Of a stretch of DNA of 64,000 nt, positions 7,849-61,301 are shown piece after piece. A program made the position numbers and the translations under genes. Position 1 is the stretch's first letter; every line of letters begins with the position of its first letter. The DNA is from Amoebophrya sp. A120 (taxonomy: Eukaryota > Protista > Dinoflagellata), in assembly GCA_905178155.1 (NCBI GenBank), contig CAJINV010000003.1, positions 4,561,863 to 4,625,862 on the forward strand, in the 5' to 3' direction. The notes beneath the pieces were generated by a model that saw only the letters and a list, made by a program, of their open reading frames with translations, searched no databases and had not been told where the DNA came from.

Positions 7849-10837
7849 ATGCCTGTGCTCTTCTTTACTGTACGAAAAATGCCCCTGGAACAATCTTCCT
7901 ACTATCAACAAACACCCAGGACTCTCTTCGATTTGTTGCTCTTGTCGCGGTCGGTCACAGCAGGAAAGTCTGACCTCAAGGACGACGACGCTTCGCTTGT
8001 TGGTCCGCTGCTGGGTGCGCGAAGCAAGACGGAGAAGAAGCTGGTTGGGGAGTGTCCCGGAGGCGTGGAGCGGTTTGACTTTGCACTGCACGACGCGGCG
8101 ATGAGCACTGGCGACAAGAAGACATCACAAAAGGCGGGCTCTTCGTTGAACCGTTTCAGGGTCTTTCACGTGATCTTGGCAATCGCCCACGTCGTTCGCA
8201 TCCAAGCTTCCAAGGGCGGGAACACGGTGCCCGGAGCTTCGTTGCTCGATCGGTCCAACTATCCTAAGTAAAAACGTACCCACACCAGAGTTAGGATGGG
8301 GATTTTGCAACACAAACCTAGGAGTTTTGTGAGTCACGCATGACAAGTTGCGCTCTGCAGTGTAGTGCAGGTTAGCAAGTGCAGCCGCGTCACAAATCCA
8401 GCTGCTCATCCTGTTCACAGCATCACAAATTCCCAAACCCGATTGGAAATGGCTCTCATGGGGATGCGCATTACAAGTCTTCCTGTCTTTGCAAATCTGC
8501 ATTACAACTCTGGTGTGGGTACGTTTTTACTCAGGATACCAACCTTCGTGATCCGGTGCGGAAATTTGTCAACCTGAAGCTGGCCGAATATCCTGAGTAA
8601 AAACGTACCCACACCAGAGTTGTAATGCAAATCTGCATGCTGAAAATGTTTCTCATGCGGAGCCTCATGAGGAGCATTTTCTAGTCGTGTTTTGCAATTT
8701 GTCATGCTCCAATCAGCATTGTATGCTAGATCTGTGATGCTGCTGAGCTAGCTCAAACAGCACTACACTACGAATCCAAATTTGTCATGCAAAACAGCCA
8801 AAACTTGTGGATTTGTCTAGCCGATTTCCCATCTTGACTGTGTGGGTACGTTTTTACTCAGGATACCGAAAAGATTGCGAACAACCTCTTCCCGCATCTG
8901 GCTGGCACAGTCTGCGACTGCGGGCGCGACGACCCGGTTTTCAAGGAGAAGATGAATAAGTACTTACAACTTCTACTCGTCTTACAAATTCAAAGAAACC
9001 AAAACCGATTGAATACAGTTTTTGATTTTTTCATCACCTAGAGCGAATGCGAAAGTCAATCGATTCTTAAAAGGAAATCCATTTTCTATTCCAGGGTGCA
9101 AGCGGGGCTCCAGGGCATGATTCAGAGAAAACACGTTGAACGCGTCGAGGTGACGGAGCTGGAGAAGGTTTGTTGTCATGAGGGAGAAGAGTGCGACGCG
9201 TCAGGATATGCCTTCGAGTTCGTGTCCGTTTTATACGAGCGGGAGGAGGACCCACCGAGGCACTACTGGACTTGCTTCGCGCCGCCCCGCTTTACAGGTG
9301 CTACCTCTACCGCGACGTCAAGCAGCGTGCCGCCTGCGAAAGTCAGTGCGAAAACACAGAGCGTTGGTTTTGCTCCTGGGAAAGAAACGGCGCGAGGAGA
9401 ACCGCTGGTTGCAGGAGAAGAGAAGAAGTTCGCGAAGATGAAGGTAGCAAATAAAAGTAACGCATCGAAGTCAACAATCCAAGGAGGAGCTACGAGAGGG
9501 GACGGGAAATCGATCGCGAAGACGGCTGGACTTGTTAACGGTCCGACTTTTTCCAAGTCTACAAGCGACGCTGGCCCGGGGTCGAATAAACACGGCATTG
9601 CAGCTGCACCGTCGTCTTCATCATCCGACTTGCTCGGAAATAGTAACCCATTTGCCATTCATCAGCGGAGCGGCGGCAAATCGGTACAAAAGTTTTTTGA
9701 TCTGTACAAAGACACGTCGTGGAGCACTGCGGGAGACGGCGTGAAAGAAGGTTACAGCATCAACGTTTACGAGAAGTCGATCAATCTTTACGACCACTCC
9801 CTCGTGTACGCGGGTGGCGCGGAGAAGGTACATTAATGAAGAGTGACCTTCTGATCATGCTTGATATGAGTATAGTGCAGCTTGCGGATCAGTACACAGT
9901 TGAGCAGCCTGCGTTTGAAGTCTGATCGTGCAGTTGAAGAAATGATAATTAACCACTACATCAAACACTAACAGGGCCGTATTCAGGTGAAGAAGGAAGC
10001 CTTTAGTGACGGCAAAAATCCGGACTTGTTGATCGTGAAGTCCGAGGAAAATCCGGTGAAAAGTAGCACAGTGCCTTGTGGTCTGCGATTCGGCAGTGCG
10101 CCAAACTGCAGTGGAGTGCAAAAGGAACTACTTCGGAGTCCGGAAATACACGTCCGGACGCAGCCGGGCGCCAACCCCGAGACGTTCCTCTTGAGCAAGA
10201 AGTTAACGAAGCGCTACTACGTCAAGCCGACAAGCGCCGCTCCATCGCAAAGTGAAAAAGGAAAAGCAGTCAAGTCTACCGGTAGTGCACTTGCCGGAAG
10301 TGGGACGAAGCAACCATTTCAGGAAGACGAAGTCGTGGACAAGTTCTTTCGGGAGTGGGCCGGAACTCAGTGGATCTCCAAAGCAAGCAAAGCGGAGAAA
10401 CTTGCCACCGGACAGTACTCTGTGCGAGTAATGGCTGGCACAGTGGAGCTCTGCTACGAGAACAAGGTACAAGTCACCAATTGTATGCGCATTGAAGATG
10501 AAGTTGTTTTTTTTTGGTCGTCATTCCTCGCACTTCGTGCACTTCTTTATCGATGAACGCAAAATATTGTTCTCAGGTTGTTGAAGTCGTCGGAAAAGCT
10601 GAATTTTCTGCGGTGGAGGCTGGGCTCATCGAGTTGAGTAAGGACACCTGCAGAATTCGATCTATCACATATGCGAAAGAGGACGCCCTGGACCGCGAGA
10701 GCTGGGAATTTCTGGCTACGATTACGGTGCCACCAACTGCCGCGTCTGCGCCAAGCACGGGCTCGTCGAAGAAGAACTCGGACTGTTTCTACGTCGAGTT
10801 CAGCTACGCGCGGCCGGCTAAAATTTCTAGAAAATAA
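7849..10837 (+). CDS. Hypothetical protein, 6 exons (7849-8259, 8544-8588, 8871-8959, 9095-9827, 9987-10502, 10577-10837)
   Basis: The frame is continuous after removing two TIR elements (plus one TSD each) and three GT-AG introns (8960-9094, 9828-9986, 10503-10576): ...LDRSN|LRDPVRKFVNLKLAE|KIANNLF... The start could instead be ATG 7879. Confidence 0.7.
8260..8538. mobile_element. MITE-like introner, family C (279 bp), 5-bp TSD CCAAC
   Basis: TIRs tatcctaagtaaaaacgtacccacaccagagtt ... aactctggtgtgggtacgtttttactcaggata. CCAAC at 8255-8259 and 8539-8543. Confidence 0.93.
8589..8865. mobile_element. MITE-like introner, family C (277 bp), opposite orientation to the 8260 copy, TSD CCGAA
   Basis: TIRs tatcctgagtaaaaacgtacccacac ... 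tgtgggtacgtttttactcaggata. CCGAA at 8584-8588 and 8866-8870. Confidence 0.93.
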
Positions 10838-11704
10838 GCTTGTTTGTTTGTACTGCGGGTTTTGGGTTCTTGTGCGGGTTTTTGAAGTTTTGGGTTTCAC
10901 AGATTTGCTTGCTGCAGAGGCCTATGCACAAACATGATTACAAATAGCGATAGCATGTTTTTCAATTGAATAATGACAGGTCACATTCGAATTTTCATCA
11001 TTTTTTGGCTTCAAGACAATGAATCATTGAATTGCTTCACCGAGTTTTTTAAATTATGGTTTAGCTTTAGGGTACAGAGACATATGCATAAGTTTCTGAA
11101 TAGTTTCATTTTGCTTTTGGTTTAGGGTTCATGAAAATCCTCACGATTTGAACAGTTTAGACGGGTACGGAACACAGCAGATTCATGAAGATATTGCAAA
11201 ATGCACCTTTAATTCGCAAACGCAACATTTTAGATTTTGTCAACTGCTTGAAATTTTAGCAACAGCCTTCCCGGGCGGAATCAGGTGGATCACCCGATGA
11301 CCCATAGAAGCTTGTTTTTCCAAACTCCTGGAACACGCACAGTATCGAGCTTTCTGTGCGGGACTTTCTGCAGAGTGATGAGGTGTTGCGTTTCCAAACC
11401 AGTTGTGTGCACAGTTCAGAGAAGATGAAGATCCTAGACAAAAGCTTGAGCGTAGCTTGAGTCATTGCAATATTTGAAGTGCTCGTGCTCCTGCTGTGGC
11501 AGTAGGAGGTTTGATACACTTTGTGGCTACACGATTTTTCCATCTCATCAAAAGATAGCTCGGAAGAGAAAATCTCCCTGTGAATACGCACTCCTATTCA
11601 GGTCTCGTAGTAGTGAAAGCAGGATGAGTATGTACTTGAGTTAGGAGCTACATTGGTTGCAGCTCAAATTTTTGTTTTGCGTTTCCCCATTGCATCGCGA
11701 CATA

Positions 11705-14356: not shown

Positions 14357-16410
14357 ATGCCACGGCGCAGCAGCGGTCGGACGAAGCTGGCGAAGCAGCA
14401 ACAGATTGTAGAGCTGTCCACACTCGCGGTCGCCAGTACGTTCTTGTTCCTTTCCTTCTGTTGGAGTCGCCACTCGATTCCGAAGTCGAGTCTGTCTCGC
14501 TACCTGGAGCGACTCATAGCAGAAAGTGAGCAGCTGAGCGATGGCGCCGTCCCCGGAAGAAATGGGGGCACGACGCCTATCAAATGCAAAAGTGTCTGGG
14601 TCTGGAAGAATGCATGTTTGTCATGCTTGTCTGGCATGACCCTTAAATCTGTCATGCACGTTACCCAAGAGCTCGATTTTTCTGTGATGCAGAAACGCAG
14701 TTTGTCATGCAGAATAGGCAACACGTAGAGGCTCAGAAACTTGTCATGCTGAGCCAGCACTTGTGGCCTCATCATGAGACGCCACACAGCATCACAAGTT
14801 TCCAGACCCAGACATTTTTACTTTTGATATCGCCACCACAGTCCTGGTTTTCAGTCATCCGCAACGCCTCGGTTAACCAGTACAAGAAACAGGCCATTCA
14901 TGACTCCTTCCAGAACGCGGTGGGAAGCATCAGCAAGGTGTTGGCCGAGTCGGGGTTGGCAGACTCGGTGGTTGCCCAGCGTCTCCTCTACGCACTGTTC
15001 AAAGTTGCGGAGGGCGACGCGTTGGGCTTCGAGAAAACCGCTGCTGCGGAAGCGGAGGAGATCAAAGAATTGTTTGGGGACATCGCTGTACCAGCCTCGG
15101 CGACCGAATCAGTCTCATTAGCGTCCCCGACCGATAATTCTTTGACGAAACCAGACGCGACCGCCGGGCTTTTTCCTCTCCGCGCACGCTCGTTTCGGGT
15201 ACTTGGCGACGCGGTGCTGGATTCTTTCGTGTTCACCCCGTGCTTCGGTTTGGCAGGATATCTCTTTCCGAAATACTCTGCGCAGGTGGAGGTCCGGCGC
15301 TATTTGCGCCGCTACGAGGACGCTTCGCTGGCGGCGAAGGTACTGTACGCACAGTTGATAACCGCAAAGCGCTTGCCCCAGCTGGCGCCGTCTTCCTCCG
15401 AGGGAAAAAAAGTGAAACCATCACCGGACAAGAAAAAAAAGAAAAAGAAGGACACGACCGGCGTCGCGACTGCGGGTCTTCAGGACCTTGCTGCATCGTC
15501 CGGCGGAGAAAAGACTATGTCTTCCTCAGATGACGCAACGGGCTTCGAAATCATCGAGGTCCAGGACAGCCACCCGTTTGACCGGATTGTCGTACGAGCA
15601 GTATTGGGCCTCGCCGGGGAAGATGCGGAGAACGACATAAGAAGTACGCTGGCACCAGAGCAGCTGCAAGCGCTCGAGCAGTTTACAGAGACAGTGCTAG
15701 AGGCCGGCAAAGAGGTTAGGCGGGGAAGAACGACGTCGCCGGCATCGGGCAGCAAACGCAAAGCCTCAGAAAGCCCGCTCGCCGGTGGGGCTGGAAATGA
15801 CGACGCAGTTGTTTTGTCCGTCGATGCCGCAAGGAAGTGGGGGTCAATTGCAGATTTTTTCCAGCACTGCATTGCACCAACGGCTGTAGCAGACCAGGTT
15901 AGGGAAATTTTGTTGCGGTTTCCGCTAGTGCTTCTCGCGCGGGACCTGGATCAAATGCTTTTCATTCACTGGCTGTGCGATTCTGGCAATACGGAGCTCG
16001 TAAGGTTTGTGCTCAGCGAAGAAATGCTTCAGCCGGTAGTGGAGGTATTGCAGCGGGCTTTTTCATCAAACGACAAGTGCGCACAGAATCCCTACACCGA
16101 TGCGAGGAGCGGAACTGCAGTCGCAGGGGCAGAGCCGGGCGCGGGGGGACTGGGACCGGTGTTTGCGGTTCCTAGCAGCCTTTTTGAGGAAAAAGACGTG
16201 TTAAGTGTTGACGTGCTGCGGAAAATTATGCTGAACCACCAGGACTGGGGCGCGGGTAACACCCCCTTGCATTACGCGTTTGATTGCGAGCAGGACGAAA
16301 TCATAGATCTTCTCTCCTCCGCACCGCATGTAGGCTTGATCGATCAGACAGCGAGAAACATGGACGGTCGCACACTCGAGAAGCTGTTGTCAGAGAGGTC
16401 GGCCGCGTAG
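14357..16410 (+). CDS. Protein with C-terminal ankyrin-like repeats, interrupted by one introner
   Basis: ATG 14357. Removing 14578-14834 (257 nt) joins ...GGTTP|PQSWFSV... in frame. Ankyrin-like NHQDWGAGNTPLHYAF...NMDGRT near the C-terminus. Confidence 0.75.
14578..14829. mobile_element. MITE-like introner, family A1 (252 bp), TSD ACGCC/TCGCC
   Basis: TIRs tatcaaatgcaaaagtgtctgggtctggaa ... ttccagacccagacatttttacttttgata. Highly similar over its full length to 60587-60838. Confidence 0.93.
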
Positions 16411-16565
16411 CAGGCTCGAGTGGAAATCGAAAGGTAAAGAAACAAATCCTCAGATAACATTGCACCTGCAAATAAACAGGCGTGAATAAACGTGCAGCCC
16501 GCAATCGGGGTCGTATCGATTCGCGTTTGAAACGAGTAACCATGAGCCTGTGAGTGAGCATTGCA

Positions 16566-16605
16566 GGCCCCACAGGCCGATCGCTGGGCCCCACAGGCCG
16601 ATCGC
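16566..16605. repeat. Tandem duplication of ggccccacaggccgatcgc (19 bp, period 21)
   Basis: Two exact copies at 16566-16584 and 16587-16605, in the spacer upstream of the DVNP-domain gene. Confidence 0.85.
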
Positions 16606-16844
16606 GTTGATACATAGTCATTGTAAAGTAAGACGAGTTTTATCTCGCGAGTCTTGTTTTGGGACGGAGAGTACGGAGAGAGAAATTTGGCCAACGTTGT
16701 GGCGCATTGTACGTTCGAGAGCGGCGTGCGAAAACGCTGAATCGGGACGGTCGCTGTATCAAAAATACGTCTGATATAGGAAATCGAAAATCTTAAGTGT
16801 GTACTGAAAGCTGATGAAATAATATTGCGCTCGGTGGCTCCACA

Positions 16845-19800
16845 ATGAATCAATTTCCTTTTGCTAGAAGCCGCGATCCCTACCACCAGGCGGGAGCGCA
16901 GATGCGGAAAAACTCCGGCAACACCGCTGCAGGAAAGCCTCGGCCCAGGCCGTCCGCAAAGCAGAAGGCCCCGGATGATACCGCAGAGGCCGCAACCGCA
17001 GGCACTTCTCCCGCCCTGAAGAAGCGAAGAAAGCACGCCGACCCGGGCGCGTCTTCGGGTGCAAACGCGGATTCGAAGAAAGAGGAAGCCACTAACAAAA
17101 AGAAGAAAAATCCTGCGGCAGAGAAAGTGAAGGCGCAAATCACGAGGCAGCAGCTCTCGAAGAAGGAAAAACTCCTGTGGGAGAAGCATCAGGCGCAAAT
17201 TGCTTTCGGCCCGACCGCCATGGAGCAAGTTTTCAGTGGCGAGAAGACCGTAACGGATTACGGTCTGCGCAAGCAGGACCTGATGCAGGACCCGGAAACG
17301 GGGCGGATCGTCTCGAAGAAGCAGTACCAGGCCCGCATCAAGCGATGGCACACGCCGGCAAATGCCGACGGAAGCGTGAATCGCAATTTTCACTGGAGTA
17401 AGGCGTTTGCGAAAGCGCGAGCGGAGCACGCGGGGGGCAAGAAGGCGACGCCGGATGGTACAGAGCAGAAACTCGCCGCGGAAGTAGACGAGGGATTTGC
17501 GGCTGCACAACAGGAAAACATGGCGCAGCTGCGAAGCGGTGTCGAGCCCTCGCGAGGTGGAAAAAAATCCCCAATGAAAGCCTCTGCATCTTCTTCACCG
17601 AACAGTGTGGAGCAGGGCAGGATAAAATCGGTGAACGTGTTTGCGTTGACGAAGCCCGAGCGGACTGGGCTGTTTGACCGCACGCGGGAGCTGTACACGA
17701 ACTCGGTTGCAGAAAGCGAGGCCGATCACCGGATGCAGGAGCTGGCGAAACGCTGGACCAGCAATTTGCTGAGGGAAGACGACAGCGGGCTGGACGTTTT
17801 GTGGTCTCACGGCGCCACGCTGGCGGGAGAGCGGGAGCAAGTTGCCAATCAAGACCAAGATGCGACGGCGGGACAAAGCGTACACGGCGGGAAAAATGAT
17901 CCGGTGCACGAGGAAAAGGTGGATTCGGAAAGCAACGCTTCGACTTCCTTGCTTGTACAGTTTTTGCGCCACTGCTTTTCGCGTGACGACGGTTCGATTG
18001 CGCCGGAGCAGCAAACCGACGTAGATGAGCGAAGCGGCCTTCATCCACCGGGGCCCCGAAAAGACAATGGGTCAGAGGGGAGCAGCTTTGCAGAAAATGC
18101 GAAGAACGACGCGATCAGCCCGCAGAAGTACTGTGCAGTTTTGCAACAAGAAACTACTCCTGTTATGCCCCCCGCGCCGGAAACCGCTGGAGCATCACCA
18201 AGAGCAGACGCAGCTACAGCCGCATCTCCAGCCGATTGCAGTTCCGGCCTTGGTATCGAGCCCGTCGCTGCTGGTGAGCCAAACACCGCGGATTTTGACA
18301 CTCCCGCAATCGCATTTGCAAATGAAGTTGGGTCACCTGCTGCACAAAATTCCCTAGATGAAGGCGATAGAAGAAGCAACCCGCCCGAGGAAAGGAAAAG
18401 CACAGGCTCAGTGTCAGGTTTACGTGCATTGGGCGAGTGTTCAGAAGACACGGCGAGAACAGCGTGGCACAAGTACTTTGCTCCGGAACTAGTGAAAAAC
18501 GACGATGGTGAAGCTGCGCTGACGCCCGTGTCGGTGAAGAGCCTTTGGGACGAGATGACGCAGCACTTCGTGCGTTCAACATTGGTTTATCAAATGTAAA
18601 AATGTCTGGGTCTGGAAACTTGTGATGCTGGGTAGCGTATCATGAGGAGGCTACAAGTGCTGGCTCAGCATGACAAGCTTCTGAGCTTCTAGGTGTTGTC
18701 TATTCTGCATGACAAACTGCGTTTTCGCATGACAGAAAAATGCGGCTCTTGGGTAATGTGCATGACAAATTTAAGAGTCATGTGCATTCTTCCAGACCCA
18801 GACATTTTTGCACTTGATATGGTTCGGGAATTCGCAAAGAAAGAGGATCTTGCGCCGCTGAAGCAGGTGGTGCCGCGGATGCAATGCGCTACGTCTTCTG
18901 TACGACCGACGACTGCAGCGTCTTCGGAGCGCCGGATGACCCCGGAGGAGGAAGACGTGTTTCTGCGGGAGTGTCGTGAGGCGTTGAAAGTGTGTGGGAA
19001 TCCAGCACTGGCAGCGAAATATTCCGGAACTTTGCCGCTGCTGGCGCAGAATGGTGAAGCCGTCCCACGAGGCGACGCACCGGAACAGCCACAGCTGCCT
19101 GAACCTGCGAGATCGCAGCAGTTCGCGAAAAAAGAAAATAAGAAGGAGAAAAAACCTATGCCGGAAGCGGTGAAAGAGAAGCTGCGCAAGCACAAGCAAG
19201 AACAGCGGGAAAAGAAACTGCAGGGGGAAGAGCCAGTGCGAATAAATAAGAAGGCAAAGGTAGACAAGAATGCTGAGCAGGATAGCGGAGACTACTACTC
19301 CTGGTACGACTACAATTACGATGATGCCCTCGACGGTTACAATTGGATGGAGCTTGACTACGACAACTATGGGTCATACGCGGACAAAGACGGATGGCCA
19401 GCATTCCCGGAGTATAACTCGTCCGCTTCTGCGTCGGTGTCACACTCGAAGTCGGCATCACGAAAGAAAAACGACAAGAAAAGCAAGAAGCTGCCACGCC
19501 GGGCCAAGGACAAAGCGAAGACGGAGATGAAGCATAGCCAGAACTTGAAGATGAAAGAAAGCGGCCGCAAGAAGGGGCCTTTGCCAAGAGAGATGAAGGA
19601 TTTTGAGAGTCTGCAACAAAAAGAAGACGGTGCGACTAAAGACGACGCGGACCATGGCCCAAAGCGAAAACCGCCGGAGCTGCGGCAGAACGTGGCATCG
19701 TACGGAGGGCCGGAGTGCTTTGTGTTCGAGGATGATGACATCAGTTCGGGCTCTTGGTCCGAAATTACTGACGGCGAAATGGAGCGGCTAGACGCGTACC

Positions 19801-27612: not shown

Positions 27613-28868
27613 ATGGCGACCACCATTTCGGAAAGCCCGAGCCGGCGAGAAGAAAGTAAGCGACTTCCACAGCTGTTGCGGGATGGATCCCTGGCCGATT
27701 GCGTGACCGCGGGTAATGCGGTCAGCGGCATCTGTGCCATCCTCGGGTGCATGTATGCGAGTAAGGAACATCTCCGGGACGTGCTCACACGGAAAAACGA
27801 CTCGGTTTTCTACACGGTACCGGAGCGGGACCTGGACCCGGCCTGGGCGCTGCGGGTCGCCTTCTGGTTTCTCCCCCTCGGGCTCGTGTGCGACATCATG
27901 GACGGCTTCGTAGCCCGGCTCCGGAAAGCCAGCAGCCCCTTCGGTGCGGTATCGTAAGGAAAAATCCCCCCTCCCCATATCGGAAACGGAAGACGCGCGA
28001 ATTTGTAATGCTGTATTTGAGTACACAAATCCACTTGTATTGCTAGAAGGCCAAGAGACGAAGCTGCGGCCTAAATTGCAGGCAATCTGTCATGCTGTTT
28101 CCCACGTCCAGTTGCCTCCTGTCATCCTGGAGCTGCAAGGCTTTCCCTCGCTAGACAGCACTACAGTCCGCATCTTTTGCCTTCTAGCATCACAAAGCTG
28201 ATTTGTGACCACAAATCTGCATCACAGATTTCCGTTTTGATATGGGGAGGGGGCATTTTTCATTGTAATATGCGGACTTGGATTCCCTCGCGGACCTGGT
28301 CACCTTCGGAGTTGCTCCCAGTGTGTTCGGGTTTGTCTTGGGCCTTGACGGGGGGTGGGACGCTTGCTGTCTGCTGTTTTTCTTGCTGTGCGGCGTCGCG
28401 CGGCTAGCGAGGTACAACGTCACCGCCTCGCTGCTCAGCGATACGAAGACTGGACAGGTCTCCTTTTTCCAGGGTCTGCCCATTCCCGCCTCGTTGTGGC
28501 TGTGCTTGTTTCTCTACATCGATTTCGAACTTTCACAAAAGGATACCAGCACCAACTTGGCCTCATCCGCTGCCGCTGGCCAAGCAGAAGAAAGGATCAG
28601 TTTCTTCGGGGGCGCCGTCCAGTACTACTCTGAGGGTGCGGCCCGGAGTGCCGAGCATTTCGGGCTAAGATTATTGCGCCCGGTAGTGCGAGTTTTCGGT
28701 TCACGACTGCACTTATTCTCTCTGTGCTACCTGGCCACCGGGTCGGCACTCATTTCCACGTTTCCTGTGCCGAAGCCAGACCTCAATTGTCAGAGGCGAA
28801 AAGACACGCTACCGCAACGAAGCAAGAGTGCACAGAAAAGACTGGAAAAACACATTGGAAAGCTGTAG
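27613..28868 (+). CDS. CDP-diacylglycerol--serine O-phosphatidyltransferase (PssA/CHO1 type)
   Basis: The CDP-alcohol phosphotransferase motif DIMDGFVARLRKASSPFGA|DLDSLADLVTFG is reconstituted on removing 27950-28275. Also ADCVTAGN, ARLARYNV and FFQGLPIP. Confidence 0.9.
27950..28270. mobile_element. MITE-like introner, family D (321 bp), TSD TGCGG
   Basis: Imperfect TIRs tatcgtaaggaaaaatcccccctccccatatcggaaacggaa ... ttccgttttgatatggggagggggcatttttcattgtaata. TGCGG at 27945-27949 and 28271-28275. Confidence 0.92.
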
Positions 28869-31335: not shown

Positions 31336-33838
31336 ACTCAGCTAGTTTTTCGCGGCTCGCAGAAAACATGCGCGTAGTTCTTGTGCGCTAGTAGTGCTGA
31401 ATCAATGTACCGTTATATACATCTAACGAGCACCGTTTTTTGTTTCTATATGGCCCGAGAATTCGAGGGAGACTGCCGCACGAAGGCAGTGCCCATAATT
31501 TGTGAGAGGGAAGATTTGTTTGAAGCAACACTCACCGGTTGGTGCGGATACTGTCGTGTTCGTGGTTGTTTTCTGAGCCGATTTTTGTGTAGGTATCTAA
31601 GATGCATATGGCTCATGAGATATCCACAATCTTTCCGTTTTCTGTCGAGTTTTCATTGTCTTTTTGTTCAAAACGGAAACGACTGTCAGTGCCTCGTGTA
31701 GTAGAACCATTTAGCTACCCACAAGCCGCTCCCAATAAATTTGCTCCAGAAAAATCGTGACAGTTGTAGAAGATTTAAGCGTGTGCTGCCTAGGATTTGG
31801 CATTCGCCGCAAGCAGTCCTCTCGTGGATCGTCGCTACACAGCTTTTTAGTGTCTGTGTGTAAGTATGTGTAAGTATATTTTGAATGTGGTCTTACCGTT
31901 TTTAGTTTCCTGATCTATTAGCGCAGCTACCTCCACCAGCTGCCGCTTCGTCGTGGTGTAGAAAACTCCTGGAACAGAACGTGCGATTTCTGATGTATTA
32001 ATTGTGGCTGCTCCTGCTGTATTACCAAGCTACTACTTATTTACATTTTTTGTTTTGCAAATCGACATAGAAAAAATATGGTTGTCCCCGCGCTTCTGGG
32101 ACTCAGCGGGTTGGGTTACTTACAGTGGAAGGCCGGAAAAGATATCCTTGCTGAAAACGTCTTCAGATTTGCGATGAGCAGAATGTGTGCTCTGATGCGG
32201 ATTCGATTGAGAGCCGCTTTCACATAATGTTTGGGGATAATGCTTGCTCAGTATGTTGAGAAAATAGCTTCGTGATGAGGCCGTACGGCTAGCCTCGATG
32301 ACATTGTAGGCAAAATTTTGCTGTGTGCATACCGCAGTATTTCAGCATCCGGGTCTTGATGCATGTCAGTCTGCAGAAGTCACATCGCTGCCTAGAGGCT
32401 GGGGACGTCTTCAAGCAGGATAAAGGACCTGAATGCGCTAACCGATGGACAATCGCACAGTCCTTTCACATTTTGGGCCGGACTGTCGCTTGGAGGCCTG
32501 CTTGGAGTGTGGGTAAGAATTTTTGCCGTGTTTGAAGCGCATTCCGACGATTTCCTGCAGTGTGAGACACGACGTAAGTACTCAGTGTCCGATCAGTGCG
32601 CATACATCTTCAAATTTAATGTCGCATCCTAATCTACTTGATCGATTCCGTTCCCATTTTGTAAACAGGTGTACCGTGGCTCTCTGGTCTTCGAAGTAGA
32701 AGTAGATTCGACTAGATGATGCGTGCTTGTGAATCATGCAGAATATTAGCGCGTTTTAAGACAACAACGCACTGCAGGTGGGAACAAACTATGGACCAGC
32801 CATTGTACGCGGCTACCAAGCATGTGAAACATTTCTCTCTTGGGTGGTTCCTTTCGGGTTTTCCGGAGACGACAGTAATCGCAACAACGCGGACGGCGCC
32901 CCTCCGAAGAAATAATCAGCATGTTCTGGATTACCAGCACAAATCAGAGCGTTACACATAGCATAATCGTTCTTGGTGACCTACTGATGAAGTATGGTGC
33001 CCACCGCATCCACACCTGTCGTCGAAATTTTTTTCTCGAGAATATTTGGTCGTCTCTGCAAGCGAATCATGCACAGCGTGGTCAAAGTGAGCGCTGATAC
33101 AGCATACCATCGACTGCGAGAGTGCACCAGTTGCGCGGAGCTAAAATGCCGTTTCAATGTCTGTTCTGAAGTCTCCTTCAAATAAGAAGAAACTTGGGTA
33201 CTGGCGTTACAAGCGCGCACCTGAGCGAAAAGACATCTGTTGTACAGAATGACAAGGCATCAAGGGTTGCAATTATGCGACTGCCGCGTCCTGGTCCAGT
33301 GCGTTGGGGAATCAAGGAGCACAGAAGTGTAGACAGTTCGTATACAACGCACAACATTCATCGTTATTTTCCTGATAGAGATTTGTTGTTGTTCCGATCG
33401 CTGATTCCATGAATTTCGTTTCAGATTTCGTTTGCGGGTCGTCCATCATGCATTTCGCAACCAATGTCGAAAACTTCCAGGCAACGGGACGAGCACTCTA
33501 CTAACGACGCCGCTCCTTCGGATGCATACTTTCGTGATGTCACTCTTCCTCTGTCGTATTCTTCGGGTTCGTATCGTTCAGGATGCTCGTTTTGGTTTTT
33601 CTCCCTAAGGTAAACATCGATACATTGTTGGCTGTCTTCGTAGACCCTCTAGGTTAGATGGAAAAAACACGTGCTCTGCTGGTTGTAGGCCGGCCTAGAG
33701 AGCATTACCTTTTTTTGTTGACGTCGTGCTACAGTTAGTGCATGTATTGAGAATTAGAATTTATAACCAAGAGACTACATCGCACGCTTTGATTTTGCAG
33801 GAGTCGTGAGGTTGTTTTTCCTGATTCTGGTAGCCAGG

Positions 33839-36800: not shown

Positions 36801-38418
36801 CGTGGCTCCTGGACCAAGATAGATAAATAAGTATCCCCTTCCGTATTCTGTGCAGGATGAGAAGTTTCTTATTTCGTTTTTTTTTTCCGACTCAGAATCT
36901 GAGTCGGAAAAAAAAAACGAATCAGATGACATGTTTGCAGCGTATACCGTGCCCGGCTACACTGATTCCGCGTACAGTGTGCACAACATGTCGGGAAGTA
37001 TGATGGAAGCTGCCCACCGCATGATCCGAGACGAATACCACGTCGTGGCTATCCTCCTGAGTAGATCATCCTCTACCATGACGCAATTCATATGCGTTTT
37101 ACCGCGAAGGCTGTGCATGTGCATGGATACATTCGCTCCGCATGATTAGGAGCATTTCATGTAGTTGTACCACTTTCCTAGCCTGTCGCGTACAGCCAAG
37201 AAACTTCTAAATTTAGCCATGAAAAAATTCGTTTGGTAAGTCTACCTTTTACTTTTGTGAACATGGTAAGTCTACCTTTTACTCAGGATAGTGACTGTGA
37301 ATTTTCGAGCAAAGTACGGCATCACCCGGGAGGTACAAAACATGCTTGCTCAGTTGCCTGTATGTAAGGGTATAGCAAGGATGCGGCCTCCTGAGCCGAG
37401 ATAAAAATGCCATGAATCATATGAATGCTACAAAATATAATCAACGTCAGGGGCCGAGCAAGGGGTACCGGCAGGACCCGATCAGTCAGCAGTTCCTGAA
37501 GTATGCCACGCCTCCGCAAGCCCAAGCCGATTCGGGCGCCGCGCCCAGCGGAGAGGAAGGGGCGTCGGTCGGCGAAGTGAACAAGACCGAGGAGGTGGGG
37601 AAGGACGACAGCGGTTGCTGTGGCTACGGGACGACGCCGGAGGATGAAAGCAAGAAAACCGAGGAGGTCGTGGGGGAGAACGCCGCCGAGAGCAATGCGA
37701 ACGACGGTGAAAGCAAGGCTTTCGTCCAGGTGAACGCAGCCGCGACGATGAGCGCGGACTTCCTGGCGAGCGAGAAGTCACTGGGTGGTCAAGATGAACA
37801 GCACCGGGACGAGCCGTTCCCGTTTGCCAGCGAACCAGTTGCTGGGACAGAAGACGCGGCTTCGTTTCTTCAGTTCAAGTCCAACGCTATGACAACCTCC
37901 CGTGGGAATTTTTCCAAAAAGATGAAGAGATTTGATTTCTTCCGCTAGTAAGTACATCAGAAACGTAACTTCTTTTTGGTCGCAGAGCCCTTGAAGATGC
38001 AAAGGCGACGTTTGCAAACGCTACCAAATCTCTACCTACTAGAATGATTCCCACTTGGCGGTAGTATACCAGCGTACGCAGAATCGGCCTACGGTATGGA
38101 GACTGACAGTTCATCCTATGTTCAACTCGCATTCATTCTCGGGGAGGAATACTTAAGAATGTAGCGCGATGTGATGTTTGATTTCAGAAACTAATATAGC
38201 TGTCCCCCAAAAAATGAAAGATCGTATTCACTTGAAATGGAAAAACAGCTTCTCCAACGAACGACGCACCGATTCCGTGGGGCTTCGTGTTCGCGATTCT
38301 GTGCGGGCTGATGTTCACCGCCGGATTCGTGCGGGTTGGCTACAACTACTATCTGGCACAGTACAAGGCGACGCTGAAACCGGAAGTTGACTACTACGTC
38401 AAGGACGTGGGGATCTGA
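33839..38418 (+). CDS. Signal-peptide-bearing Gln/His/Pro-rich multi-exon protein with probable C-terminal TM exon (type I surface protein)
   Basis: MPRCLKVVALFCCVAQA signal, internal peptide repeats, several GT-AG introns and a degenerate introner. An unlisted short frame at 38249-38418 encodes IPWGFVFAILCGLMFTAGFVRVGYNYY...DVGI*. Linkage of the last exons is not fully resolved. Confidence 0.6.
37050..37290. mobile_element. Degenerate family-C-like introner (241 bp), TSD GTGGC/GTGAC
   Basis: Left end tatcctcctgagta, right end ttttactcaggata. Removing 37050-37295 gives the open frame EYHVVA|VNFRAKYGITRE, which joins ORF 37412 via a GT-AG intron ending at 37450. Confidence 0.75.
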
Positions 38419-39688: not shown

Positions 39689-42600
39689 ATGGTATCTGCT
39701 AACGAAAAGAAGCGGCGAGACCGCGAGAAGAAGAAGGCACAGGAGAAGCGACGAAAAACGCGACAGGCCGAGCAACGCGCAGAGGCCGCGGATCGAGAAA
39801 AAGTACAGGCTCGCAGAGAGGTGCTTGGGGGAAATGAAGCACAGGAACCAGAGGGCGACGAAGAATACGTGATTCCAGAGCTTCCATTCAACCAGGACGA
39901 CAGCAGGTTCGACGAGTACAAAAAAGTTTTCCACACCTTTTCCATAGCCGGCGACGAGGACGAGAAAGAGGATGGGGACGAGGGCAAGAAACCCAAACCC
40001 GGCGAGAAAAAGTCCAAGCTCCAGCTGCGCAAGCAGGTACAAGAGGGGGAGGACGGCGACCGGGAGAGCGGCGTAGCGGATGTGTACGAGCGCTCTAAGA
40101 AAAAGAAGAAGAAGAAGTTTCTGGTGCACGAGCTGAAACAGGTCGTGGAGCGACCCGACGTGGTCACAGAAGTCGATACCACCAGTCCCGATCCGAAGCT
40201 TCTCGTGTATGATTTTCTTTTTTGCATGATCCCGATAGTGTTTACGGCCTTTGTTATTGTTTCAAGAACGCACAGGTCGTCGCCTGCCGCGTTTGTGCAT
40301 GTCGTCTTATCAGATGAAGCCCTAAGGTCCACCTAAGGTCTTGAATCCATGAAATTGTTTATCTGCTACAGGTTTTTGAAGGCATATCGCAACACGGTTC
40401 AAGTGCCACCGCATTGGTCAGCCAAACGAAAGTTTTTGTCGATGAAGAAGGGGCAAGAGAAACCGCGATACCGCCTGCCCGAGTTTATCGAGGCGACCGG
40501 AATTCAAAAAATACGAGAGGCAGTGCTGGCGAAGGAAGAAGGACAAGGTAGCAAAATTGAGACACTACTTCTCGGATGAACAGCAGCATGAAGATACAAG
40601 CTCTTACTTTAAGATTCGCTGAGTTTCTTTGAAATTCAATATGGTCCTCTTCGCGCGGTGAGATTGCATGGATAGGTTCAACCATGTTCCCCACGCAAGA
40701 ATAAATGGAGATTTGCGCATCTACATCAATCACTTGGAATTATGAACACTGAACAGGCTCCACAGGCAGGGCGAAAGCGAGGTTGACGGCGAAGATGGGA
40801 AAACTGGATATCGATTACCAGGTTCTACACGATGCCTTTTTCAAATACCAGACACGACCCAAGCTGACCGGACACAACGATATTTATTTCGAGGGAAAGG
40901 AGCAGCAGATGAAGATGCAATCCCAAAAGCCCGGCGGGAAACTTACCGCCCCACTCATGCAAGCGCTAGGTATTGATTCTTGTACACTCCGGATTCTGCA
41001 TGTTTCAGTTTCGCCCACACGTCTCCTCTGCGATGCGGCTCTGCGGTGGTCATATTAGCAAATAAGCCAATGTCAGCAACAAGAAGCCATCGCGAGTGTG
41101 CAGCATGGAGATCTTGGTATATTGATTACGAGTTGAAGATGTGCCGACCAATTTGTTCAGGTATGATCGACGAGAACCAGCCTCCCCCCTGGCTTTTCAA
41201 CATGCAGCGCTACGGGCCCCCAAAGGCGTATCCGATGATGCGCATTCCAGGAGTTAACGCCCCCATCCCCGAGGGAGCAGAATACGGCATGAATCCGGGC
41301 CAATGGGGAAGACCTCCCCTGGACGAATATGAAATGCAAAAATGTCTGGGTCTGGAAGATTGCAACTTGTCATGGTAAATCTGAAGCATGCAAAAATCTG
41401 TGTTGCATGAGTGCCAAAAGCTGTCCACTTTTGACCAAGTTGGAACGGAGTTGCTCATGCAGAATAGGCATGGCAGAGACCTCGCAGAGTCTGTCACGCT
41501 AAGTCCCGCATTCCAGACCTCATGGGTCATGGAAAATCTGCATGACAAGTCTACACTCTTCCAGACCCAGACTTTTTTGCGCTTGATAACGAATTCGGCA
41601 ACCCAAAATTCGGCGACTGGGCCAAAGAACACGCGGCCCGCGCAAGAAGAGCCCAGTATTATTATTGAAACATTTTTAAAACAGGGCTACCTAAGCACAC
41701 ACAAGTGTGAAGATGAGCTTGAGAACAAGAAGTAGTGATTCACAACTTTCTAAGAGCTTGTTTGCGTTCTTTGAGTCGTAGGCTAGGAAAGTTATCCTTC
41801 ACTGAACAATACTACCACAGAGTGGACGACAATACACTTTGGGGAGAAGCTGAAGACGTGTCAGATGATGAGGAGCAAATGCAGGCCGAGGGGCCTGAGG
41901 AACAAGCAGGAATGTCCGGCACTGCCACCCCAATGGTGGGACACGCGACCCCTATGGTACTTGAGTTGGCACATCAACATTTCCACTTCTTTATCTCTGT
42001 AAAGTCCAGCAAAAATTTTAGCGTTTTCATCGCGGAGGATGGCGTTTTATGTGTGTATTTGTCCGTCGTGGCGCGACCTTTGCGACTCTGTCTGATTGAC
42101 ATGTTCTCAATGATTGATTGAATATCAGATCGGGGTAGCGACGCCACTGGCAGGCGCAGGGACGCCACTCATTGGCAGCGGGTACAGAAGTACATCAGGA
42201 ATTTCTTCCGTGACTTCGAACTTAACTGGCGGCCTGCAGACTCCCACCATGAGTATGCAGTACGGGTATGGAAGTGCGCAAACAGGCGGGGTGAGGTCTG
42301 GCAGCATGACGCCCGGACCACAGCTGTTTCAGGTGCTCGAAGAGCAGAAGCGGGTGGCTGGCGCTGGCGGAGTTTTTCCAAGTGCGCACGGATACCGTGC
42401 GGGTGGGATTGCCACGCCCGGTATCGCCACACCCGGTATCGCAACACCGGGAATCGCAACACCCGGAATCGCGACACCGGGGTTTGCAACGCCAGGAATC
42501 GCAACGCCGGGCATTATGCGAGGTCCACAAAGCGGAATTGCGTCCGTGGGGAGAATTCCAGGTATGCACTTGCTTTAAGAAGTGACCTTGGATGAATACA

Positions 42601-46649: not shown

Positions 46650-49600
46650 ATGTCGGGCCTCATCCCGCGCGATTACCAAATCGAGGCCGCGAACTCGGCG
46701 ATGAATGAAAATATCATCGTAAATTTGCCAACCGGGTCGGGGAAAACGCTCATTGCCGCTCTAGTACATGAGCAAATGAAGTCACGGATGACCCTCGTGG
46801 CGTGCGCGTCTGTCGCGGTTATAGAACAGCATACCCAGTTTTTTCAATCCCGAGGGATTCGAAACGTGATCATTGACACCGCAGCTGGCCTGAAAGCACG
46901 CATCTTCGATTATGGGGGCGTAGGTATCTATTGCAAATGCTAATTCCTGTTGATTTCATCTCGATAATTACTGAGTAGACAAACTGGCGGCCTCGCTAAT
47001 TTTGCAATTGGTTGGTAGGCACACAGACGCTTACGAAGATAGTTTCTTTGTTTAGATGGAGGAAGAAACCAGGATCGACTTGTGAGCAACGGTCAAGATG
47101 AATTATTTCGCCAAAAAAATCAATTCAGGTGATGAGAACGACGAAGAGGAAGACCCGGACGTGAACGCACGGATGCTCGAGGAACGAAGAGAAAACATTC
47201 GGCGAAAGGTTGCTGGGGTGCAGCTGGTGGTCTTTGATGAATGCCACCACGCAATCGGGCACCACCCCTACGTGAAATTCTGCGAGCTCCTGTTTCAGTA
47301 TTGTTTGGATAAAGATTTGTGAAGTTGGAATTTGTTGGCGATGTGGACGTAGAGCTAGAGGTTGCGCGTTTTTGATGAAAAATCAAAACCCATGCCAGTG
47401 GGCAGCTTTGTAGTTTTCTCCTGGCGCTGTCTGAGTTTGATGCTAGATCCATCTCGATAACGTAAACATGACATCAAATAACGCAGGTACAAGGAACAGG
47501 AGTCATTTCGGGTGCTTGGGCTGACCGCGAGCTTCATTCACGGGCAGTTCGAGCAGATCTCGAAGAAGCGGAAGCGGTTGGAGGACAACCTCCGGGCGCG
47601 GCTGTGGACCCCCACGAACTTTTTGGTGAAGAACCCGGACAAGCACTTTTACAAGGTGGAGTACAGCGCGCCCAAAAACCTGGTGTTGAGTAAGCGCGAC
47701 ATCGAGAACCGCAGTTTCGAGATGATGCGCCCGATCCTGAAATCCCTTCCCTACGGCATGGCCTCCATCGTGAGCAAGGAGGTTTCCAAGTCGGCCTACC
47801 TCTGCTACTACATCCTGGGCGACGCGGGCTGGTCCTTTTTTCTCCGCGACGGGCTGGTCCCGTACCTGGAGGCCAAATTGCGGCAGAAGGCCGAGTACGT
47901 GGTGCGGGATGCGGTGCAGCAGCACGAACTGAACAGACGCTACGCCCTGGAACACGACGACGACAAGTACAACAGCGAGCAGAAGGATTTTCCCGTGGAT
48001 CAGGGAGGTGGAGGGAGCCTCGGGACGAACGGTGGTCCACCGCCCAACAAGAAACAGGCTCGCGGCCCCTTCGAAGACTACAGCGACACCGCCTCGTTGT
48101 ACTCCAGCGCCCCGTCTCTACCGACAACTTCCGACCTGGAGTCACAGCGTGCCGAGTTCTTCGCACCGCTCCAGCGGTACCTACAGCAAGCCATCCCGAT
48201 TATTCCCCAAGTCAGCCCCAAAGTTGAAAGTTTGCTCGAGATCTTGCTGTCCTGCACGTCCTCCAGAACGGTAAACACCTACGTCACCGACCCTGTCTTT
48301 GGCGGGCCGGCATACGCGGTACAAATGTTTTCTTGCTGTAGCGTTCTGTCAGACACGAGTGTTGACACAGTTAGGTCGCGCACCAGCTGTCCTGCTTTCT
48401 GTAACCCGTACTCATCACGTGACCAAAAGAAACTATGGGACTCGACTGACTACTAGAGTTTGGTCACGTTGCCTTGTCCGTCTCAAAAAGGCATGCTCAA
48501 AAGGAAAGATATATATCTGTAGCACCGACTGAATTTCTGTTTTGCAAAATTTACGTGACGACAAATACAGCAACAAGTGGAGGAAATCGACACTTCTCTT
48601 GTTTTCGTGGAGCGTGCGGTACTCTGTATTCCGCTGGCGAAGATAATCGAGATGCGCACACGCCGCGTTTGCCGACCAGTGATGGGTGTGCAGAGCATGT
48701 CCGCGGAAGTGCGGAACTCGACGCTGCAGGCCTTCAAAGAGGGCAAAGTCCGAGTCATCGTCGCTACCAGCAGTCTCGAGGAAGGTAAAGAAGCATAGGA
48801 CTTGAGAAATTACCACTGCATTCACATTGTTGTATGCTATGATAGCAGCTGCGATCATCTCCTGCTTTCAGTGTATGACAGTATAGTTGGAAGACAAAAC
48901 TCTTTTTTCTACAAACGCTCCGCTCCCTCTCCCTGGTAGTTCACTTATGATTTGCTATTTTGTCCATACAGGTATCGATGTTGCGGACTGCAAGGTGGTG
49001 GTACGATTCGATTACTTCTCTAGTGTCCGGTCGCACATCCAGGGCTCGGGCCGCGCGCGGCACCCAGACGCGAAGATTTTTTACTTCGAGCAGGAACCCG
49101 AAGTGGAGGAGTACAAGGCGAGCCTGATGACACTGGCGGCAGCCAACCGCGACCTGGAGATTCCGGACCTTGATGCGCAGCAGCGACGGCAGATTCCGGA
49201 GCTGCAGCGCGGGACGGGAAACAACGGCAAGGAAGGCAAAGAAGGCGACGAGGAAAACAACCAGGAAGGCGATCCGAAGAGCCGGACCGACAGCAAGCGA
49301 AACCCCGGGCGCAAGTGCCAGGACCCACCGCACCTCCGCGTCCGCGAGTACCCAACGCTGACACTGTGCGGCGTGGGCCACTGCTTCGACAAGGAAGAGA
49401 TATCAAATGCAAAAATGTCTGGGTCTGGAAGAGTGGAAGATTTGTCATGCAGGTTTTCCATGATCCATGAGGTCTGTAATGCATGGTCTAGCATGACAGA
49501 TTTTAAGAGGGCTTCCTGATGCCTGTTCCGCATGAGAAATTCCCTCTCGCCGTGGGAAAATCTGGAGTCTTCTCGCTGGTCATGCATTACAGATTTTTCT

Positions 49601-51288
49601 CGAATCCGAAGACAGCATGACAAGTTGCAATCTCTCAGACCCAGACACTTTTGCATTTGATAAGCGACCACGTGGGACCACGTTTCCAACAAATCCCAAC
49701 GGGTGGCCGTCTGTATCCCCCAGAAAAAGACCGACAGGTCATATTTGTAATGCAAAAATAAATAGACAAAAAAATCTGTATTGCATGCCCTAAACAGGAT
49801 GTTATGGCCTCGCCCATGACAGATTTTCCTGTGTATTTATTTTTGCATTACAAATATGACCTGTCGGTCTTTTTCTGTGGGATAGTCTGCACCAAGTGCA
49901 AGCGCGCCACCGTGGTGATCAAGTCGCGGGTGCTGGGCCAGGGGAGGAAGAAGAAGGAGCGGTACTACTGCTTTGGGGGCCGCGAGAATGACTGGGTCTG
50001 CAAGTGGGCCACGCCGGAGGAGCTGGAGAAGGCGAAGACCATGACCATGGAAGACCTCCTGGAACAGGGGCACGAGGTCGGCACCCACGCGGCGAAGGCG
50101 ATGCAGGTGGCCAAACTGGACGCGGAAGCGCGCCGGGCCGAGGCCGAGAAGCGCAAGAGGGAGGCGGAGAACGGGGAGGCGCAGGAGTTCGCGACGCCGC
50201 CCGACCAGTCTCCGCGCACCGAGGACGACGGTGGAAATAACGTGGACGCCGCGGACGCGAGAGTGAAGGACCATTTATTGCAGGCTTCGGCGGAGGACGG
50301 CGAGGGTGCTGCGCAGGTAGCGGAAAAGGGCGATGTGACGTCTTCCAAAAAGACCGACGCAGAGGGGACGAATAACAACGGTAGTACGAAAAGACAGAAT
50401 GTGTCTCCCGCCAAACCCGCACGGGGGAGCGCCTCGGTGTCGACGAACGCGTCAGGGCAGCGCGTTTACAACTTGCTGGAGGGACCGCTCGAAGGTCCGA
50501 TCGTCAGTTTGCGGAAAGAAAAGGAAGAGAGTACCGAGATGGAGAAAATGCTTGCTACCGGCGGGAACCGACCCATGAGCTACCAGCCCGTGCAGCAGAG
50601 CTACCTGGGCGGCACCGTTGCAGGCGGGTATAGTAATCCCACCGGTCCGGGGGGCCCGGCATCCGGTGTCTACCCCGCGAGCTACGGTGCCAGTCCAAAC
50701 CGCAGCGGTGGTCCCGGTTCGTATGGAAACTACCCGGCGACCGCACCGCCGAGGCCGGCTTCTCTCGGGGGAGTCGGAGGCGACTCGTCCGCGCCGCAGT
50801 ATAGTGCAGTTCCGAAAGGTGGGCGAGCCCCCAGTACTACAGGTAGTACTACCGGTGGTCCGAAAGGAGCGGCCGCCGCGACGCCGACCCGCGAACCCCC
50901 TGGTCTCGCGGCCGAGCAACCGCAGAGCAGCACATCGAAGGAAGGCGCTGTCGTAGGGAGTGAGGCGGGAGAACTACAACCATCAGGCACGACGGCCAAC
51001 AAGGCTCCTTTGCCGGTCATCGACAAGCCAAACCCGTCGCTTCCCCCCATCATGCCCCCGGTCCTCGCACACCTCAAGCGCACAAGCTCCAGTGCGCCGG
51101 AAGAAGCTGTCGCCGCTCCGGTTCCACCGCCGCTACCCGCGGGAGGCCCGCCTCCGCCGCCCGTTGCCCGACCACCCCCACCCCCGCCACCGGGGCTTTC
51201 TCCCGACGACGACCCCGCCGACGACGACTTGCGAGCCCTCGAAGAGTTCGGTCACGAGGAAAACAAAAAGTTTGAGCAAGTGCAGTAA
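46650..51288 (+). CDS. Stand-alone Dicer/RIG-I-type DExD/H RNA helicase with Cys-motif region and Pro-rich tail
   Basis: PRDYQ, LPTGSGKT, DECHHA, LGLTAS, VFVER, IVATSSLEE|GIDVADCKVVVRFD and HIQGSGRAR. GT-AG introns at 46924-47128, 47298-47486, 48271-48570 and 48785-48971, plus two introners. Confidence 0.88.
49401..49662. mobile_element. MITE-like introner, family A2 (262 bp), opposite orientation to the 41328 copy, TSD AGAGA/AGCGA
   Basis: TIRs tatcaaatgcaaaaatgtctgggtctg ... cagacccagacacttttgcatttgata. Contains an in-frame TGA (49517-49519). Removing 49401-49667 gives FDKEE|TTWDHVS. Confidence 0.93.
49714..49884. mobile_element. Foldback-like introner, family B (171 bp, ~66-bp TIRs), TSD GTCTG
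   Basis: tatcccccagaaaaagaccgacaggtcatatttgtaatgcaaaaataaat... is mirrored at the right end with ~4 mismatches. GTCTG at 49709-49713 and 49885-49889. Removal gives VAVC|TKCKR. Confidence 0.95.
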
Positions 51289-59716: not shown

Positions 59717-61301
59717 ATGTTGGAGCTGGAGGAGTTCTCGTTTCGGGACCTGGCCTCCGTGTTGTTTCCCGACTGGCTGAGCTCCACGGACGAGGTGATT
59801 GGTATCATCGCCGAGGCGCAGAGGACCGGGCACCTGGCAACGGAGCGCGCCGACGTGAAGGAGGTCGCGTTCACGATGAACAAAGTGAGTGCCACCGGTT
59901 CGTCCTACACTACGCGCTACCTCTGCGGGGCGGATTTACCCGTCTTGGCGGAGTTGGAGAGCGGCGTTTGCTACGCTTCCGCGCGGGGCGAGCTCGGACT
60001 GGTTGTCAACTACTCGATGAGTCGGACGAAGTGGTTTCCCAGCCTCGGGCTCCCGGAATACGAAGTGTGGTTCTACGATGCCGTTTTGATCCTGGTCGGG
60101 CTTCTCTGCTCCCTGTGCCTTTGGTTCAACGTCAAGGCGTTTTTGTCGCTGTTCGCGGCCGCCCGCGGGGCCAAGCCGGTCCAGTTGGTCGTCGAAGACG
60201 AGGTGACTTTGGTGGACGCGAAGCAGTATCAGCAGGTCGCTCCGGTGCTCGATGTCACGGCCACGACCACGCTGCTTGATGATGAGGTCGACCTGGAGGA
60301 CTCGGCGGTGGAAGGTACTCAATATTTATGGACTCGTTTGATAGGACATCACTGCTACACTTTGCAGAATATTAAGCAGTAGCTTATGGACACGACATCG
60401 ATGTTGAAATGATGTATGATGTGCTCTTTGTACTGTAGCTCCTTGTTGGACTTGTAAAAAATCTACATGATCTACAATCGCAGATAAATCGGTTTCGGTG
60501 GAGCCCGTTTCGGTGGTTGAGAAGGAAGAAGAGAAGGTACCAACGCCCGTGACCGAGGCTTCCGGAAGCGAGGACCGCCTCCAGGATAGCAAATGCAAAA
60601 ATGTCTGGGTCTGGAAGAATTCATGATTGTCATGCTTGTCTGGCATGACTCTTAAATCTGTCATGCACGTTACCCAAGAGCTCCGTTTTTCTGTGATGCA
60701 GAAGCGCAGTTTGCCATGCAGAATAGGCAACACCTAGGAGCTCAGAAACTTGTCATGCTGAGCCAGCATTTGTAGCCTCGTCATGAGACGCCACCCAGCA
60801 TCACAAGTTTCCAGACCCAGACATTTTTACAGTTGATACAGGATGCTGTCCCGCAAGAGGCCGCGGCGGTTCCGGAGAGAACGACGGCCATCCCGGAAGG
60901 TTAGAAAGATGTTTTGATTTAATATCTGTGAAGTTGTTGAGCGCCGGGTGCGCGTATGGCGGATTTTATGTCTGCGTTCCTCTGTCTGTTTCTAGCCGTG
61001 CACCTTTCGAAAGCAGAGGCAAGGTAGTTGGTTCCATACGCTAGTGGCTGTACAAGTACAGATGGTCGAAAATAATAATCAATGCAACCAAGGTTCTTAC
61101 GAAGAGACTACGCCCGCACCGGCTGTGGACGACGGTGGCGCTAGTTCTTCGTCGGACATGATCTCCCCCGCTATGACCCAGACGACGGCGGGTGCCTCCA
61201 AAATCTCCAAGGGAACCCGTACCTTGAAGCGTCGCTTGTCTTCGTGCTGCGGGGTTTCGAAGGTGCAGGAGGAAGCCACGTACACCCTGGACTCCGCTTA
61301 A
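59717..61301 (+). CDS. Hypothetical single-pass membrane protein, multi-exon, with one introner
   Basis: ATG 59717. TM-like AVLILVGLLCSLCLWFNV. GT-AG intron from ~60314. EDRLQ|DAVPQE is joined on removing 60587-60843. Last exon ends in TAA at 61301. Confidence 0.65.
60587..60838. mobile_element. MITE-like introner, family A1 (252 bp), TSD CAGGA
   Basis: TIRs tagcaaatgcaaaaatgtctgggtctggaa ... ttccagacccagacatttttacagttgata. CAGGA at 60582-60586 and 60839-60843. Same length and orientation as the 14578 copy. Confidence 0.93.

Follow-up and report, generated by a model that had tools for sequence, protein, structure and literature searches.

Introners of Amoebophrya sp. A120 have been described as a population of 29,850 copies in 1,954 families, in which no transposase was recognized and U1 small nuclear RNA (snRNA) was not detected (Farhat et al. 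2021, PMC7789003). The text of that report describes elements of approximately 240 nt with direct repeats of 3–5 nt, a hairpin, non-canonical splicing, no internal transposase and many families, and an inverted repeat that starts with TAT followed by seven variable bases and then at least three As. It deals with the ends only and argues against general transposase-mediated mobilization, and, figures aside, its text mentions no internal motif common to different families. In the available text of a later report, one A120 family was given as "Ginger, 5-bp TSD, TA/TA termini" (TSD, target-site duplication), and A120 introner family 38 was stated to have no homology to known Gingers (Gozashti et al. 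2025, PMC12130899). We analyzed a 64,000-nt stretch of the A120 genome (assembly GCA_905178155.1, contig CAJINV010000003.1, positions 4,561,863 to 4,625,862, forward strand), hereafter the window, whose elements with terminal inverted repeats (TIRs) resemble the described introners in these features and match A120-type introners. A reading of the window made from the letters alone (the sequence-only reading) had noted that the elements share an internal motif, YTGTNATGC, and this shared site bears on how the introners are moved and how they are spliced. From the sequence comparisons below we consider it, on balance, probable that the motif forms an array of binding sites on double-stranded DNA for one mobilizing protein, likely a transposase or an element-encoded helper, and that the array would serve the copying of the element and likely not its splicing.

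The exact motif was present on either strand at 38 sites in the window, 36 of which lay inside ten TIR elements amounting to 2,587 nt; nine of the ten elements carried it. Dinucleotide shuffles of the elements (n = 2,000) gave a mean of 0.43 sites and a maximum of 4. Outside the elements, 61,413 nt contained just two exact sites, both in long open reading frames (ORFs), and there was none in 11 transcript-supported GT-AG introns (2,167 nt). The enrichment over background was thus as the sequence-only reading had expected, and every site that it had listed for families A to D was found in the element named. A family-balanced matrix, with a score threshold of 9 for a matrix site, refined the site to about RRAYYTGTVATGCW. 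The proposed core was retained, but the middle base was not free, being T in merely 9 of 1,018 sites, and a purine-rich 5' flank common to the sites had to be added. TG and CA words were abundant in the elements. Outside any recognized element, a single strong matrix site at window 45677-45693, near the end of a transcript contig, may be a chance occurrence or a remnant.

To extend the sample, metagenome contigs were scanned with the family A end. At least 158 stretches were obtained and gave 148 loci (683 kb with overlaps; those listed all from one related assembly), in which family A is over-represented because the loci were picked for carrying it. The loci contained 360 TIR candidates, 326 of which (450 bp or shorter) passed the filter; together with the ten window elements, these fell into 13 multi-copy families and 9 singletons. 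The motif was present in all 13 multi-copy families, and 326 of the 336 elements had an exact site. A motif-blind finder recovered 282 elements, of which 277 (98%) contained a matrix site; applied to 377 kb of shuffled DNA, it recovered none. Of 255 copies, 196 had a TSD of exactly 5 bp and none had one of 6–9 bp; insertion showed no target preference. The elements were short, non-coding and multi-copy and had TIRs and TSDs, as in miniature inverted-repeat transposable elements (MITEs). In a family-balanced logo of the ends, TAT followed by C or G and then an A-tract at positions 11–15 were found in all families. The TIRs therefore share more than the terminal 4 bp or so that had been attributed to them, and two families even had whole terminal 11-mers in common. 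At TIR positions 4-10 in the metagenome loci (L001-L148), a few terminal 10-11-mers recurred at one end or the other, in different subfamilies and in two families, largely independently of the opposite end of the element, which suggests an exchange of tips between elements. TIR positions 17–28 were family-specific, and the two TIRs of one copy matched each other above shuffled partners in four of six families (p < 0.05).

The distances of the sites from the ends and from each other were also shared. At all but one of the 26 family ends, the first site was located 32–53 bp inside the end, and same-strand pairs of sites 31–33 bp apart were present in 10 of 13 families, as compared with a mean of 1.6 and a maximum of 6 in 3,000 trials of random placement. 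Two periods, 10.4 bp with z 4.4 and 16 bp with z 5.0, stood above the 99% null maximum of 3.9. A strict inward-pointing rule, suggested by the window elements, failed in other families. Since motif, spacing, ends and 5-bp duplication recur in the 13 families, the proposal of the sequence-only reading that one shared factor unites them is supported, and a site common to the families points to one system and not to many unrelated invasions. Whether the families are unrelated, as that reading had it, is less clear. They were not simple deletion derivatives of one sequence; when sites and TIRs were masked, 3 of 91 family pairs scored z > 4, and none of these was among the window families A–D. This test was weak, as two pairs of subfamilies within family A scored only z 2.0 and 2.7, so that unrelatedness is not proven. 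Motif sites were 87% identical where the interiors were only 55–65% identical; diverged copies keep the motif.

The elements of the window, which interrupt plus-strand genes, are as follows.

8260..8538, C1 (family C): 279 bp, perfect 5-bp TSD, four exact and six matrix sites, all on the minus strand.
8589..8865, C2 (family C, reverse orientation to C1): 277 bp, four exact and five matrix sites, all on the plus strand.
14578..14829, A1 (family A): 252 bp, TSD matching at 4/5 positions, six sites, in a gene with weak ankyrin matches.
18588..18819, A2 (family A, reversed): 232 bp, five sites, in a DVNP-domain gene.
27950..28270, D (family D): 321 bp, four exact sites.
32143..32422, E (old, ends and length like those of family C): 280 bp, TSD 4/5, no intact site (best score 7.7).
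36594..36946, F (old TAT…ATA stem): 353 bp, TSD 3/5, no intact site.
41328..41588, A3 (family A): 261 bp, one exact and six matrix sites, in a PSP-domain gene.
49401..49662, A4 (family A): 262 bp, TSD 4/5, five exact and six matrix sites.
49714..49884, B (family B): 171 bp, near-palindromic, two exact and four matrix sites.
60587..60838, A5 (family A): 252 bp, 93% identical to A1, five exact sites.

They had TAT…ATA ends and a 5-bp direct repeat, with the exception of A5, whose left end was TAG. E and F, overlooked by the sequence-only reading, were added by a systematic and by a relaxed TIR/TSD search, respectively. E is likely kin to family C by sequence comparison (z about 7 unmasked, 0.1–1.6 with the sites masked). 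C1 sits in an exon of a plus-strand gene, in which the frame opens once the element and 5 nt are removed; C2 sits in the same gene, so that the two carry opposite motif forms in one gene. D interrupts a CDP-alcohol phosphatidyltransferase domain, the insertion falling between positions 61 and 62 of the profile. Several neighboring features were also seen. The DVNP-family domain (window 16818-18596) was embedded in a long ORF of about 590 aa and was not a small stand-alone protein. Such a domain points to a dinoflagellate, and together with sequence composition and the anatomy of the elements it fits Amoebophrya, a marine parasite, as the host. The PSP-domain gene holding A3, which we take to be SF3B2-like, had at window 42390-42524 seven 15-bp tandem repeats encoding a GIATP-type pentapeptide (Pfam GLTT match). 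A4 and B lay 51 nt apart in a multi-exon helicase-like gene (weak Helicase_C match; window 46640-51288).

Splice joints were taken from contigs of two public runs of one sample, presumed to be RNA, with 15 of 29 joints listed. All four elements that had a listed joint were skipped, each as the element plus 5 nt: E (285 = 280 + 5), A3 (266 = 261 + 5), A4 (267 = 262 + 5) and B (176 = 171 + 5). An empty-site allele is an unlikely cause of these skips. There were no letter differences between the run contigs and the window across the long pieces listed, and contig depth at the skipped elements was that of neighboring GT-AG introns, E matching the next GT-AG intron. Base 3 of the TSD is not the same in the two copies that flank E or in those that flank A4 (window 32138-32427 and 49396-49667), and in both cases the upstream base was retained at the joint, which places the 5' cut 0–2 nt before the TIR. 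The GT..AG boundaries of a canonical U2 intron were not present at the skipped elements, and the flanks of 150 elements showed no base preference. In predicted folds, the TIRs paired in RNA in ten of ten elements, with a mirror pairing of 0.73–1.0. E, with its stem preserved and no intact site, was nevertheless skipped, and thus provides a natural experiment, a single case of splicing of a site-less element. F is likely a second: its frame opens after removal of the element and 5 nt, which would fit splicing, and although transcript reconstruction around F had many solutions, the stop-free ones were obtained only with F removed; this was not counted as proof. About 200 raw reads of run X9, which bears the same species label, joined the family A end (window 41328-41412) to another flank; these reads represent an unspliced or non-intronic copy elsewhere, in another locus or strain. 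The raw reads of X9 and X10 matched family A repeats alone, at 90–95% likeness, and were uninformative for this locus.

If the motif were read in RNA, its orientation relative to transcription and its conservation after insertion would matter. The gene strand was callable for 150 of 335 elements, and the transcribed strand of these carried 237 U-rich and 212 A-rich forms of the motif. The majority form per element was split 60:55 with 35 ties, and 22 elements had only one form and 29 only the other. Strand bias, which the sequence-only reading had proposed to examine, was thus absent relative to transcription, and relative to the element ends the first site pointed inward at 19 of 26. To test for selection, 199 copies from six subfamilies, collected through homology of their interiors, were compared. 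Variants that copies had in common affected 2.2% of motif-core letters versus 11.6% of interior letters, whereas private changes affected 117 of 7,463 motif letters (1.6%) versus 529 of 28,162 interior letters (1.9%, p = 0.08) and showed no CpG excess. The two TSD copies, which are identical at birth, differed at 45 of 915 letters (4.9%), and the total motif deviation of 3.8% falls within this value; the terminal three bases deviated less than the motif did (1.9–2.4%, p 0.001–0.02). An age-stratified test of private mutations had little power. The simplest reading of these comparisons is that the sites would be under selection while the elements propagate and under little selection once these are inserted. 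A model in which motif pairs with motif in an RNA hairpin failed for family C, and in predicted folds the sites were neither consistently single-stranded nor paired with each other. The absence of strand bias, private changes near the interior rate and the splicing of site-less E together disfavor an RNA splicing signal. Of the two factors named in the sequence-only reading, a common transposase or an RNA-binding splicing factor, the splicing factor is thus the less favored, and a DNA-binding mobilizer fits, be it the transposase or a host cofactor.

In the mechanism that we propose, the protein would load cooperatively onto the sites 32–53 bp inside the ends, mostly as same-strand pairs 31–33 bp apart, corresponding to three helical turns. 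The ends would then be brought together, cut at TAT and joined into the target with a 5-bp stagger; movement could be either cut-and-paste or copy-and-paste. In RNA, the 25–30-bp TIR stem would likely mark the intron whichever way the element is inserted, and excision of one of the two duplicated 5-mers would restore the exon. In competition for the protein, copies with a larger number of good sites would win over the others, so that the motif would be kept as the interiors and inner TIRs diverge into many families.

Several observations weigh against this account of the motif or limit it. Only five of the 282 elements of the motif-blind finder were site-less, and the first site pointed inward at no more than the 19 of 26 family ends given above. 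The 10.4-bp and 16-bp periods fit alike, so that helical phasing is plausible and a 16-bp lattice equally so. The families may have a common ancestry, judging from their sequences, in which case the counts would not be independent and the spacing statistics would be inflated. Within family A, orientation was skewed 42:24, with p = 0.036 in one test among many. The ratio of private motif to interior changes was below 1 in five of six subfamilies (0.6–0.84) and 1.5 in the largest and most deeply sampled one, and weak post-insertion selection on the motif is possible. With 2–6 sites per element, redundancy could mask a role in splicing, which limits the selection test. Inherited change at TIR positions 17–28 was 2.1%, as constrained as the motif. 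Lastly, no transposase family was detected in a Pfam scan that covered 105 of the 120 ORFs with 260 aa or more in the metagenome loci, which amount to about 0.5 Mb of a related genome.

The constraint on the inner TIRs fits family-specific transposases acting with a shared host factor, and so keeps alive an alternative that we regard as unlikely but credible: a host protein binds the motif on DNA as a cofactor of transposition, and the inner TIRs, which are specific to each family, are recognized by a single transposase or by several. All evidence for a DNA site fits this equally well, and the text of PMC7789003 reports no transposase in A120. However, the site was nearly absent from host DNA, with 2 exact matches in 61 kb outside the elements, and terminal 11-mers were common to two families; moreover, the TIR pairs within a copy match in four of six families, so that pairing or homogenization could explain the constraint on the inner TIRs. 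That an RNA-binding splicing factor reads the motif in pre-mRNA, replacing splice-site recognition, appears improbable, even though the elements have no splice-site consensus, 98% of them have a site and U1 snRNA is not detected in A120 according to the text of PMC7789003. The motif is non-palindromic and either strand is transcribed equally often, some elements have one form only, and C1 and C2 present opposite forms; E is spliced with no site, private changes are not clearly depleted, and the predicted folds do not present the sites in any consistent state.

A protein bound to DNA that both mobilizes the element and flags it for co-transcriptional removal would need no strand bias, would fit the phased grammar of the DNA sites and would explain the rarity of site-less introns, but E (from transcript contigs) and F (from its reading frame) persist as introns with no intact site, and the motif deviates at 3.8% versus 1.9–2.4% at the terminal three bases; we judge this slightly less probable still than the splicing factor. 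We hold it just as improbable that, in its widest form, one domesticated protein reads the array, moves thousands of introner families and flags the chromosome for removal, replacing the missing U1. Finally, the motif might have no function and be either a relic of one ancestral repeat or a side effect of composition or of CpG decay; deep common ancestry is possible, and TG and CA words abound in the elements. This is the least probable explanation and hardly credible, given 0.43 sites in shuffles against 36 observed, a five-fold depletion of inherited changes at the sites, sites that are 87% identical where interiors are 55–65% identical, and no CpG excess among private changes; unless an artifact of the alignment, the contrast between inherited and private changes refutes it altogether.

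One metagenome locus (L019:505-1608) contained a 1,104-bp TAT…ATA element flanked by a perfect TSD, with GA-rich internal repeats and with motif sites confined to its left end. It may have arisen from an autonomous element by deletion, and inspection of its ORFs by eye recognized no transposase. Matches to the TIR pattern elsewhere (0, 0 and 5 in viral contigs, 7 in prokaryote genomes) were 12 singles, none lying within 400 bp of a motif site, and were attributed to chance. Some metagenome copies carried secondary insertions resembling non-LTR retroelements. In four of four copies examined (L006:13463-14717, L054:3862-4492, L053:571-1051 and L027:10304-10760) the junction was at or beside the GC step of the motif, with duplications of 21, 13 and 8 bp and one small target deletion. 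Two of the inserts were related (70% identical) and lay at different sites in the same register; two had short-repeat tails, and priming by microhomology is possible. They possibly reflect a motif-targeting retroelement or breaks at bound sites.

The elements themselves had been described before; what appears to be new is the internal site common to the families, together with its spacing rule and the evidence for a role in copying over splicing. We found no description of an internal cross-family motif in the open-access literature, although figures, theses, Repbase entries and some supplements could hold one. The two jobs of the element would hereby be separated, the internal array being assigned to copying and the ends with their stem to splicing. 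The array also offers a defined bait of 40–50 bp for pulling down the missing protein. An element that inserts with no target preference and in either orientation, and that leaves no scar in mRNA, would be of practical interest once both machines are known.

These elements resemble the nonconventional introns of Euglena as described in PMC12501133, which are likewise not GT-AG and have ends that base-pair. However, the CDG/CH'G boundary signature of the Euglena introns is absent here, with no conserved CDG, expected as N3-CDG at the 5' end, in any of the three allowed cut registers, and the pairing in the A120 elements is that of a 25–30-bp TIR with the boundary within the target duplication. 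Among transposons, the ends and the TSD together suggest, by analogy, an integrase-like DDE enzyme, with hAT5 as an alternative, although none fits all features. The termini TGTNR given for Ginger1 and Ginger2 are not matched by elements that end in TAT, whereas the TSD of Ginger2/Tdd, 4 bp in general and 5 bp in TDD-4/5, is matched in its 5-bp form (PMC2836005). The TA..TA termini of IS3EU/GingerRoot are matched and their usual 6-bp TSD is not (0 of 255 copies), and likewise the TNT..AYA ends described for IS481EU are matched but its TSD of about 4, 15 or 25 bp is not (both PMC10045372). The 5-bp TSD of hAT5 is matched (PMC12730594). No transposon group compared here unites TAT ends with a 5-bp TSD. 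The internal array has its closest parallel in the MITE Emigrant, to whose subterminal repeats the Lemi1 transposase binds, and in the TIR transposons cited with it (Sleeping Beauty, pogo, hAT and CACTA; PMC1636448): Emigrant too is non-autonomous, and internal sites lie in both orientations near the ends. The Emigrant repeats described there copy part of its own TIR, whereas the introner site is unlike the TIRs, is common to at least 13 families that differ in their inner TIRs, has a spacing of 31–33 bp, and resides in elements that are spliced.

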